From Escherichia phage AidaStucki_Bas93, in the sequence record PQ850593.1: a DNA stretch of 64,000 nt; one strand, 5' to 3'. Positions 54,312 through 55,213 of the stretch are shown piece by piece (positions within the stretch are counted from its first letter, which is position 1; every line of letters starts with the position of its first letter). Both the position numbers and the translations under genes were made by a program. Under the pieces are notes generated by a model. It was not told the DNA's origin and did no database searches. It worked only from the letters and a program-made list of their open reading frames with translations.

Positions 54312-54593
54312 TCACCACTCCTTACCGGTTGTAGTTGTAGAGCCACCACACCACTGTGCATTAGATAAGGTTTTAGTCTCCTCATCCATTGCTGCACCAT
54401 TCATGCATGAGATACCATTGTAACGCATATCAATTTCGCCAGAAGGAACCTTCTCACCTTTATGCCAGCGAGATACACAAATACCTTCCACTGCTACTGC
54501 ACACCATCCATCAGGACGGCTCTGTACACAGCCTGTAAGGGCCACACAGACAAGGAAGATACAGATTAAGGATATTACACCACCCCAACTCAT
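54312..54593 (-). CDS. putative lipoprotein
   Basis: From ATG 54593 (SD GGAGG): MSWGGVISLICIFLVCVALTGC has a signal peptide plus lipobox LTGC; Cys-rich mature part. Confidence 0.45.
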   Translation of the reverse strand: MSWGGVISLICIFLVCVALTGCVQSRPDGWCAVAVEGICVSRWHKGEKVPSGEIDMRYNGISCMNGAAMDEETKTLSNAQWCGGSTTTTGKEW

Positions 54594-54604
54594 AACACAC
54601 CTCC

Positions 54605-54708
54605 AAGAGCTTCTAGCGAGGATGACAGGGTTCGAACCTGCATACTCCAATTACTTCTTTAACGACCGCTTAGAAGGCGGGGAAGATACATCCTCGCTAG
54701 AAGCTCTT
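54605..54708. repeat. 20-bp perfect inverted repeat enclosing a 64-bp structured core
   Basis: AAGAGCTTCTAGCGAGGATG (54605-54624) is the exact reverse complement of 54689-54708; the core holds two short hairpins including the palindromic GGTTCGAACC. Confidence 0.6.
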
Positions 54709-55213
54709 ATTTATTATTGAAACCCTTGCTCCAGTAATACTTACCATTGCAAGACCTACTACAAAAATGATTTTGGTTTTCTTTGTGGACCTTGTTACTC
54801 CTTCTCTCAAAAGATGTGCCACAATTACTGCAAACCAAAGTTATGACCACACCCTTAGGTCTGTTCTCTAAGGTCTTCTTTAAGTGATCATTTGTGCTTA
54901 GAATCTGAAGGTTAGATATCTCATCATTGGTTGGATTTTGATCAACATGATCTACCTCTTCCTCTGTAGTGAGATATCTTCCTATGTGGCAGGACATTAA
55001 GTACCTAGCATAAGAAACAGTAGACCTGTCTTTATCAGAGTTGTAAAGATCTACAACCCTTCTCCCCTCTCGATTTTGACGAAGATATCCCCACCTCCAG
55101 TCATTGCAGTAGGGATAATCTAATTGTATTTTCAAATTACCTCCTGCTCTATCCATTGAGCTAAGAGCGCTTAATTTATTTAGATCATATCTCGCTTGGT
55201 GATAGGACCACAC
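54707..55213 (-). CDS. HNH homing endonuclease with C-terminal zinc ribbon
   Basis: EVDHVDQNPTNDEISNLQILSTNDH HNH core plus CSNCG...CSRSC. Confidence 0.65.
   Translation of the reverse strand: MWSYHQARYDLNKLSALSSMDRAGGNLKIQLDYPYCNDWRWGYLRQNREGRRVVDLYNSDKDRSTVSYARYLMSCHIGRYLTTEEEVDHVDQNPTNDEISNLQILSTNDHLKKTLENRPKGVVITLVCSNCGTSFERRSNKVHKENQNHFCSRSCNGKYYWSKGFNNK

Follow-up and report, generated by a model that had tools for sequence, protein, structure and literature searches.

A study from 2024 states that all known bacterial transfer RNAs (tRNAs) are cloverleaves, and that the size of the arms makes up the whole structural diversity of cytosolic tRNAs (PMC11551756). Function without a conventional D-arm is known for metazoan mitochondrial tRNA-Ser(AGY) and the nematode armless tRNAs (PMC7609411), and for the engineered Escherichia coli 'mini HisT' (PMC11551756). 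In these mitochondrial and engineered molecules the arm is simply lost, the length is about 54-62 nt, and the contact between D-loop and T-loop is lost. We analyzed a 64,000-nt stretch (the window) of Escherichia phage AidaStucki_Bas93 (sequence record PQ850593.1) that contains, at positions 54605-54708, an element bounded by the perfectly matching 20-bp arms of an inverted repeat. On the minus strand, its coding strand, the element probably encodes a tRNA-Arg(UCU) that has a non-canonical structure and an extended acceptor stem and is the replacement tRNA of a cassette that carries an HNH endonuclease gene. Its relatives form a phage family that differs from the D-arm-less tRNAs above in having the full length of 77-80 nt, a covarying D-stem-like helix, a D-loop-like strand that contains GG and stands in a permuted position, and a canonical T-arm, and in being carried by phages of bacteria.

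The conventional counterpart of this RNA is the canonical tRNA-Arg(UCU), as in the Kuravirus LAMP, in E. coli (argU) and in phage T4. The two share a 7-bp acceptor stem, a 5-bp anticodon stem, the loop CUUCUAA, a GUUCRAA T-arm, a G or A discriminator, a CCA end that is encoded in most relatives, and the same slot in Kuravirus genomes. The D-loop of the LAMP tRNA, AAUGGA, is also similar to the connector UAAUUGGA of the non-canonical RNA. Whereas the canonical tRNA has a D stem-loop and a four-way junction, the family has an enclosing helix of 3-4 bp followed by a D-loop-like strand, and a three-way junction. The neighborhood of the element recalls the free-standing homing endonucleases, such as T4 SegB and T5 F-Tfl, whose genes lie in or next to tRNA genes and are co-inherited with the flanking tRNAs; with these enzymes, as at the Kuravirus locus, close relatives differ in the presence or absence of the gene. 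SegB, a GIY-YIG enzyme, recognizes a sequence inside a tRNA gene (PMC2330249). Its target is a T-arm motif, whereas the Kuravirus enzymes are predicted HNH proteins encoded inside a broken tRNA-Arg gene, each with a full replacement tRNA.

Stems of about 20 bp formed by leader and trailer enclose the 16S and 23S ribosomal RNAs (rRNAs) and are processed by RNase III. The leader-trailer duplex of the element is closer to these rRNA stems than to the RNase III sites of phage T7, and it has no internal loop of the T7 type. We know of no long processing stem around a bacterial or phage tRNA. Precursors of T4 tRNAs that lack an encoded CCA are matured by RNase BN and the CCA-adding enzyme, and CCA-less members of the phage family would likewise rely on host 3' processing and CCA addition. 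Unlike the T4 precursors, for which no long leader-trailer duplex has been described to our knowledge, the phage family shows a strict link between the absence of CCA and the duplex. The Y RNA-like RNA YrlA has a similar plan, in which paired 5' and 3' ends form a long stem that caps a tRNA-like domain; the family differs from it in its full anticodon arm, its amino-acid-specific anticodons and the CCA of most members.

A repeat search of the window placed the two arms at 54605-54624 and 54689-54708. They are 20 nt long, 100% complementary and 64 nt apart, just as an earlier reading of the letters alone (the original prediction) had described them. With three mismatches allowed, the arm sequence had two matches in the 64-kb window, the arms themselves, against 0.03 expected from shuffles. 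The duplex consists of 20 Watson-Crick pairs and one U-G pair, roughly two helical turns. The original prediction had proposed folding the minus-strand transcript, which turned out to be far more stable than shuffled sequence (z = -5.8; the plus strand gave z = -7.9). The two small hairpins that it had noticed in the core correspond to the anticodon arm and the T-arm of a minus-strand tRNA-like RNA. The repeat shares 2 nt with the TAA stop codon (54709-54707) of the HNH open reading frame (ORF) on one side, and on the other directly adjoins the Shine-Dalgarno sequence GGAGG of the lipoprotein gene, which begins at the next nucleotide, in agreement with the position given for it earlier.

Support for a tRNA came from the Rfam tRNA model (RF00005), which matched 54617-54695 on the minus strand with a marginal 29.7 bits (gathering score, 29). 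In the alignment 4 nt stood in place of the 15-nt D-arm, a 20-nt insertion fell in the variable region, and the anticodon loop was CUUCUAA (UCU, Arg). The core also contains GGTTCGAACC, a T-arm signature. Six matches were returned by a permissive Rfam scan of the element (up to E = 10), among which there was no credible family besides tRNA and none of the Y RNA or YrlA type. The hallmarks of a tRNA are present, namely a 7-bp acceptor stem, a 5-bp anticodon stem with a 7-nt loop (U33, purine at 37), and a 5-bp T-stem with a GTTCRA loop. At the 3' end of the window copy, G73 is followed by CUA (GCUA), and CCA is not encoded.

We tested the structure on an alignment (A1) of 62 distinct sequences, with shuffled sequences and slid pairing partners as controls. 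The proposed structure was paired in 94.5% of the cells, compared with 64% in shuffles and 33-47% when partners were slid. Double changes occurred in 19 of the 21 pairs, and all four helices covaried. For the acceptor, anticodon and T stems, 99%, 95% and 99% of cells were paired, with double changes in 16 of 17 pairs. There is no D-arm in this structure; a helix of 3-4 bp encloses the anticodon arm, and the D-loop-like strand UAAUUGGAGUAU runs on to the T-arm, giving a three-way junction. This core helix (columns 11-13 with 40-42, and a fourth pair in the window copy) was unpaired in none of the sequences and had compensatory changes in 22 and 12 of them: pair 12:41 was UA in 40, GC in 12, AU in 9 and CG in 1, and pair 13:40 was CG in 50, GC in 6 and UA in 6. 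Between positions 10 and 25, where a four-way junction has its D stem-loop, none was found, and the covarying helix surrounds the anticodon arm instead. A cloverleaf with an intron or an oversized D-loop was dropped because the 12-nt connector cannot form an arm and because the covariation fits a three-way junction only. The bulge after the anticodon arm ranged from 2 to 8 nt and differed by sub-family (CGUUAA, CAUUAA, WGAAA or shorter). UAAYUGGA in the connector was conserved even in members found with a pattern that left that segment free.

This arrangement could preserve much of the tRNA core. The short helix would stack on the anticodon stem in the manner of a D-stem, and the two have about as many layers as a D-stem, position 26 and an anticodon stem. 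The connector resembles a D-loop (A14, R15, Y16, Y17, G18, G19, A20) that now comes after the 3' strand of the helix and not between its two strands; its GG at 54648-54647 and A at 54646 may be the equivalents of G18, G19 and A20. We infer that this GG docks on the T-loop and that the L-shape is kept. With such a connector, U8-A14, G18-Psi55, G19-C56 and A20, a determinant for arginyl-tRNA synthetase (ArgRS), could all be retained. The connector A would supply ArgRS identity elements together with C35, U36 and G73, and the RNA would receive arginine and decode AGA (and AGG), both of which the phage uses heavily.

The family to which the element belongs is large and almost exclusively phage-borne. 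A BLAST search with the core returned about 145 phage records of unrelated groups at 76-82% identity (Justusliebigvirus, including phi92, Vequintavirinae, Mydovirus, Ounavirinae, Asteriusvirus jumbo phages, T5-like Klebsiella phages, and Vibrio and Streptomyces phages). In IMG/VR, a motif scan retrieved 76 contigs, and about 72 of these have the full architecture. In the genomes of 185,579 species the identical motif had 48 matches, just 3-4 or so of which are genuine while the remainder look like chance, and 5,426 complete E. coli genomes contained no match to the element. A second scan, for which just the 5' half and the T-loop served as anchors, recovered further sub-families with other bulges and connectors, and the pattern scans yielded at least 115 distinct cores. 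Because members were found by pattern, part of the motif invariance reflects the search, and counts over 115 cores rest on this lower bound. Covariance model R1, whose E-values are rough, gave 46-103 bits to the family and 94 to the window copy, compared with at most 36 for canonical tRNAs of the same loci and 20.9 for the LAMP tRNA-Arg.

Conventional annotation has largely passed over these RNAs. ARAGORN called just 2 of 88 family copies, and the database labels of the copies are tRNA-OTHER, tRNA-Undet, tRNA-Val or none. The copy in Streptomyces phage Yaboi (L014, 395-473), for instance, is annotated as tRNA-Val(aac), and those in phi92 (L004, 1499-1577) and Enygma are unannotated. The family is apparently undescribed: a search of freely accessible full texts that included the literal conserved sequence and reviews of non-canonical tRNAs found no description of this fold. 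In a catalogue of viral structured RNAs, candidate DNAVirus_2961 overlaps a tRNA-Arg call and might correspond to a member of the family. Some host labels in the set look doubtful. Four records labeled Campylobacter (MG065639, MG065645, MG065656 and MG065689; 146 kb) had query-match statistics identical to those of phi92-like coliphages, and OK283618 (Listeria phage LPML1, Ounavirinae) carries a family copy in a Felix-O1-like genome.

The evidence that these RNAs are working tRNAs is indirect but consistent. Same-strand tRNAs lie within 600 nt of 62 of the 88 copies, and CCA is encoded directly after the 7-bp stem and the discriminator in 71 of the 115 cores. The anticodon had been left unconstrained by both the first search pattern and the model search, and was UCU, CCU, UCG, ACG or GCG, all of them Arg, with the exceptions of UAU in contig L019 (Ile AUA) and CAU in L192. 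Among 72 arrays with at least five conventional tRNAs, seen as partial loci, a canonical Arg(UCU) was called in just four. AGA and AGG make up 26% of the Arg codons in the long ORFs of the window, an uncurated ORF set, several-fold above E. coli usage. An engineered tRNA lacking the D-arm was accepted by the translation apparatus of E. coli with no adaptation (PMC11551756). Four uncultivated phage contigs carry 2-3 non-canonical copies each, with the anticodons UCG and UCU (L054), UCU and ACG (L145), UCU, GCG and UCG (L164), and UCU and CAU (L192). In L050, an IMG/VR contig of 154 kb, a conventional tRNA-Arg(UCU) follows a few nucleotides after a long-stem non-canonical tRNA-Arg(UCU), so the two kinds can coexist.

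The window phage is a Kuravirus (a phiEco32-like coliphage) that is 99.9% identical to Bas92 outside this locus. The original prediction had suggested searching related genomes for presence or absence of the element, and such differences exist. LAMP has an intact 76-nt cloverleaf tRNA-Arg(UCU) at the same position, flanked by the lipoprotein gene on one side and the preceding small gene on the other, and the HNH gene is absent. Bas94 shares the D-arm-less RNA of the window and has no HNH gene at the locus. In the window, a spacer of the LAMP type and a 27-nt tRNA fragment are followed by a Shine-Dalgarno sequence, then by the HNH ORF and finally by the non-canonical tRNA; FH3 and 1-6af/bf are arranged in the same way. 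YF01 and O18-011 retain the 5' tRNA fragment and have a related HNH gene, whose stop codon is overlapped by a replacement tRNA-Arg of the cloverleaf type. In Bas92 a different HNH gene on the opposite strand and a new tRNA-Arg lie between 5' and 3' fragments of the old tRNA, and in TH42 a long-stem non-canonical tRNA is followed by the 3' fragment of a YF01-type tRNA. The breakpoints fall at tRNA positions 20-31, and each cassette has its own spare tRNA-Arg(UCU). These variants identify the tRNA-Arg gene as a hotspot of successive HNH invasions. The features of a homing cassette are found here: an endonuclease ORF, which is present or absent at one fixed site among otherwise collinear relatives, and an interrupted target gene. 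YF01 (L206, about 1290-1420) has further 3' remnants of tRNAs (...CTTCTGGTTCGATTCCAGATAGTCCACCA) between the replacement tRNA-Arg and the lipoprotein gene, which look like a graveyard of earlier cassette invasions.

The non-canonical RNA would be the replacement tRNA of an HNH cassette that was inserted in the original cloverleaf tRNA-Arg gene. Such cassettes break the canonical gene in a segment that the rearranged tRNA lacks, and the latter should thus escape cleavage at the presumed endonuclease target. The original prediction had offered a homing-endonuclease-associated site as one possibility. That association holds, in the form of a replacement tRNA of the cassette that split the tRNA-Arg gene. 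The structure had likewise been seen correctly, and what the prediction missed was the identity as a tRNA gene.

The HNH gene itself had been placed at 54707-55213. The overlap of its stop codon with the repeat stands, but the proposed start does not. The alignment with phrog_14913 ('HNH endonuclease', E = 3e-54) begins with the first residue of the protein initiated at TTG 55135, so 55213 is too far upstream, and the GTG there crosses the broken tRNA fragment. The relatives also favor TTG 55135, and the ATG used in O18-011 is ATA in the window. Another ATG (55156-55154) lies in the D-loop of the tRNA fragment in frame with the HNH ORF, and is the annotated start in some relatives. The match to Pfam HNH_3 (21.5 bits) was below the cutoff of 24.8, and the catalytic-region motif DHVDQNPTNDEISNLQILSTNDH is present. 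An HNH gene also lies within 20 nt downstream of the tRNA in L005, L011/L042, L027, L064 and L134, with an overlapping match in L052. These tRNA-adjacent ORFs of the HNH_3 type are related to the HNH gene of the window and occur in phages of quite different types, and the tRNA and HNH gene may move as a module. Coordinates of all features are given in the table.

Table. Features of the tRNA-Arg/HNH locus in the window (minus-strand features in window positions).
Feature	Position	Strand	Evidence or remarks
HNH homing-endonuclease gene, 142 aa from TTG 55135	54707..55135	-	Shine-Dalgarno GGAGG 55144-55140; phrog_14913 E = 3e-54
5' fragment of resident canonical tRNA-Arg, 27 nt, GCGCUCUUAGCUCAAUGGAUAGAGCAG	55144..55170	-	Identical to first 27 nt of LAMP tRNA-Arg; upstream spacer identical to that of LAMP
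5' leader arm of stem extension, AAGAGCUUCUAGC	54696..54708	-	Perfect pairing with 54617-54605; first two bases are last two of HNH stop codon
Probable tRNA-Arg(UCU) body, 78 nt + discriminator G73 (54617)	54617..54695	-	Rfam 29.7 bits; model R1 94 bits
Acceptor stem 5' strand GAGGAUG	54689..54695	-	Pairs with 54624-54618; all 7 pairs covary across 62 relatives, 99% of cells paired
U8-A9-U10, then core-helix 5' strand CUUC	54682..54688	-	T8 A9 T10 C11 invariant in alignment A1
Anticodon arm, stem CCCGC/GCGGU, loop CUUCUAA, anticodon UCU 54674-54672	54665..54681	-	All 5 stem pairs covary
Bulge CGUUAAA, then core-helix 3' strand GAAG	54654..54664	-	Bulge varies by sub-family, helix persists
Single-stranded D-loop-like connector UAAUUGGAGUAU	54642..54653	-	UAAYUGGA conserved
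T-arm GCAGG UUCGAAC CCUGU	54625..54641	-	Canonical GTTCRA T-loop; stem pairs covary
3' trailer arm of stem extension, G73 + CUAGAAGCUCUU	54605..54617	-	Pairs with leader arm; FH3 has A->G here (G-U pair, minus strand)
Phage lipoprotein gene, ATG 54593	54312..54604, including Shine-Dalgarno	-	Pfam PF24052 'Phage lipoprotein family', E = 9e-36; Shine-Dalgarno 54604-54600

The outer 13 bp of the repeat extend the acceptor stem and set apart a sub-class of the family. Leader-trailer pairing was bimodal, with 10-13 of 13 positions paired in 13 CCA-less cores and at most 8 in all 71 CCA cores (random expectation, 5.1 ± 1.8). The long extension was confined to CCA-less members, the window copy and 12 further relatives with other sequences. 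In the long-stem relatives, extensions of 12-17 bp give helices of about 19-24 bp when the 7-bp acceptor stem is included. Extension sequences vary by lineage, and pairing is kept by compensatory and G-U changes; the statistics on these changes overstate independence because members with the extension were selected for pairing. The G-U pairs occur on the tRNA-sense strand, as in FH3, which points to selection on RNA and not on a DNA cruciform. The extension probably acts at the RNA level, in processing. All long-stem copies keep C74; every copy except one has A or U at position 75, and A is usual at position 76. We considered whether the long stem is a footprint of a neighboring HNH gene, and it is not: about 16% of copies have a flanking HNH gene in the CCA class and the long-stem class alike, in a comparison of limited sensitivity (phmmer, three queries). 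Nor is it specific to solitary tRNAs among protein genes, since 10 of the 15 long-stem copies are in tRNA arrays.

We propose that the helix of about 20 bp in the precursor directs maturation of the tRNA ends. On one route, RNase III would cut the duplex and leave a 5' phosphate at +1 and an N73-C74 overhang for the CCA-adding enzyme. On another, RNase P and RNase BN/Z would cut by the 12-bp rule, and the leftover 13-bp duplex would shield the flanking ends of the messenger RNA (mRNA). The host CCA-adding enzyme would finish the 3' end. A role for RNase III is possible, but just for the outer 13 bp, the inner 7 bp being the acceptor stem.

Several observations weigh against a decoding tRNA-Arg. 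ARAGORN, run over the whole window, called no tRNA and in this sense rejects the element, and the Rfam score exceeds its threshold by just 0.7 bit. The window copy has no encoded CCA, and the first pair of its anticodon stem is C-U. For the isolated core, the consensus structure is about 1.6 kcal/mol less stable than the minimum free energy fold, which has another inner pairing; over the whole 104-nt element the two are equal in energy. The search pattern forced CGUUAA and GGAGUAUG to be invariant in the first set of members, and both vary in the second scan. The selection of extension members for pairing belongs here too. The fold is not strictly tied to arginine, because the anticodons of two relatives are UAU and CAU. 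That canonical Arg(UCU) genes are distributed in a complementary way was judged from partial loci of about 8.5 kb. Finally, PNPase degraded an engineered D-arm-less tRNA in E. coli (PMC11551756), so the stability of a D-arm-less tRNA in vivo is not assured.

A related reading, which we consider unlikely, is that the RNA is a tRNA mimic that is not used in decoding, such as a decoy or sponge for a host nuclease that targets tRNAs, or another regulatory RNA, with its 3' end buried in the long-stem copies. The window copy, without CCA and with its ends sealed in a 20-bp duplex, would suit this role, as would a fold unlike every known cytosolic tRNA and a strongly conserved anticodon loop, which could attract an anticodon nuclease; tRNA-cutting host defenses, and phage tRNAs that work against these, have been documented. 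Against a mimic, 71 of the 115 cores have CCA at the exact canonical position, and five Arg anticodons on one fold fit amino-acid identity better than mimicry of a single target. In Kuraviruses the RNA also takes the place of a canonical tRNA-Arg(UCU), in arrays it occupies the UCU slot, and AGA and AGG are common in the phage. The original prediction had listed an RNase III site of the T7 kind as one possibility. It is very improbable that the duplex is mainly such a site, separating the HNH and lipoprotein messages, with the tRNA-like core incidental to it. Most family members keep the core without any extension, and two thirds of the long-stem copies (10/15) are in tRNA arrays and not between protein genes. 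The inner 7 bp, moreover, are the acceptor stem of a covarying tRNA structure, and a perfect duplex has none of the internal loop typical of T7 sites. In favor of this role, a helix length of about 20-22 bp is conserved in long-stem relatives and matches the RNase III minimum of about two helical turns, both neighbors of the element are coding genes, one with its Shine-Dalgarno sequence right next to the repeat, and C74 is kept in long-stem copies as expected for a 2-nt 3' overhang (N73-C74) before CCA repair. RNase III cleavage as a sub-step in the maturation of a tRNA-Arg is compatible with our interpretation of the element; as its primary function it is not.

We give little credence to the long stem as a device that terminates or attenuates transcription where the tRNA ends. 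A U-run ends the 3' arm in several long-stem relatives (UCUUUUG, AUUUUAA, AUUUUUGG) and the 5' arm starts A/G-rich, but the tail in the window is just CUCUU (CUCUUGGAGG), and the next gene's Shine-Dalgarno sequence comes immediately after it. A terminator scan reported no site at 54605-54708, although it found sites at 55534-55509 and 53896-53877, and the next tRNA begins within about 20 nt of the element end in L006, L016 and L050. Least credible is the view that repeated HNH invasions left a pseudogene in decay or a recombination scar here, or that the element is a miniature inverted-repeat mobile element. Fragments of tRNA are indeed scattered at the locus in several Kuraviruses, and ARAGORN is blind to the element. 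Yet the same architecture recurs in at least 115 distinct sequences of unrelated phages with compensatory changes in every helix, and this covariation contradicts a pseudogene or scar. The mobile element, another suggestion of the original prediction, was rejected together with any other dispersed repeat: the element is single-copy and its arm unique in the window, and the window repeat search found no flanking direct repeat (target-site duplication). Its relatives are genes in tRNA arrays, and their extensions differ in sequence and are not conserved as transposase-binding ends would be.

Beyond this locus, we tentatively suggest, as a generalization that is plausible but still speculative, that phages of many bacterial phyla carry a natural class of decoding tRNA without a cloverleaf. 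The D-stem strands would be permuted around the anticodon arm in an L-shaped three-way junction charged by ArgRS; the class would be nearly absent from cells and overlooked since tRNA finders reject it. The rearrangement may have been selected as an escape from nucleases that attack the canonical D-arm/anticodon-stem segment (homing endonucleases on DNA, host tRNA-cleaving defenses on RNA), and a sub-class would be matured through the two-turn leader-trailer duplex. A covarying, Arg-specific family with a rewired core would be a natural counter-example, on bacterial ribosomes, to the rule that cytosolic tRNAs are cloverleaves. It would allow one to test what ArgRS, EF-Tu, RNase P, modification enzymes and the ribosome need of the tRNA core. 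The inventories of phage tRNAs are undercounted, given that ARAGORN misses 86 of 88 copies and labels are inconsistent, and codon-supply analyses of such phages will wrongly infer that an AGA decoder is missing. The strict link between the duplex and the lack of CCA points to an undescribed route of pre-tRNA maturation. The Kuravirus locus also illustrates clearly a kind of selfish endonuclease cassette that destroys a gene and brings its own spare copy of it.

The two sites of the terminator scan, terminator-like minus-strand hairpins with U-tracts at the positions given above, bracket the small gene, the tRNA fragment, the HNH gene, the tRNA, the lipoprotein gene and downstream genes, which suggests that this block is one transcription unit. 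No sigma-70-like promoter adjoins the tRNA, which is probably co-transcribed with the upstream HNH and downstream lipoprotein genes. The lipoprotein has the lipobox LTGC and belongs to PF24052. Because its Shine-Dalgarno sequence begins 1 nt past the stem, processing of the tRNA would leave an mRNA with a very short 5' leader.

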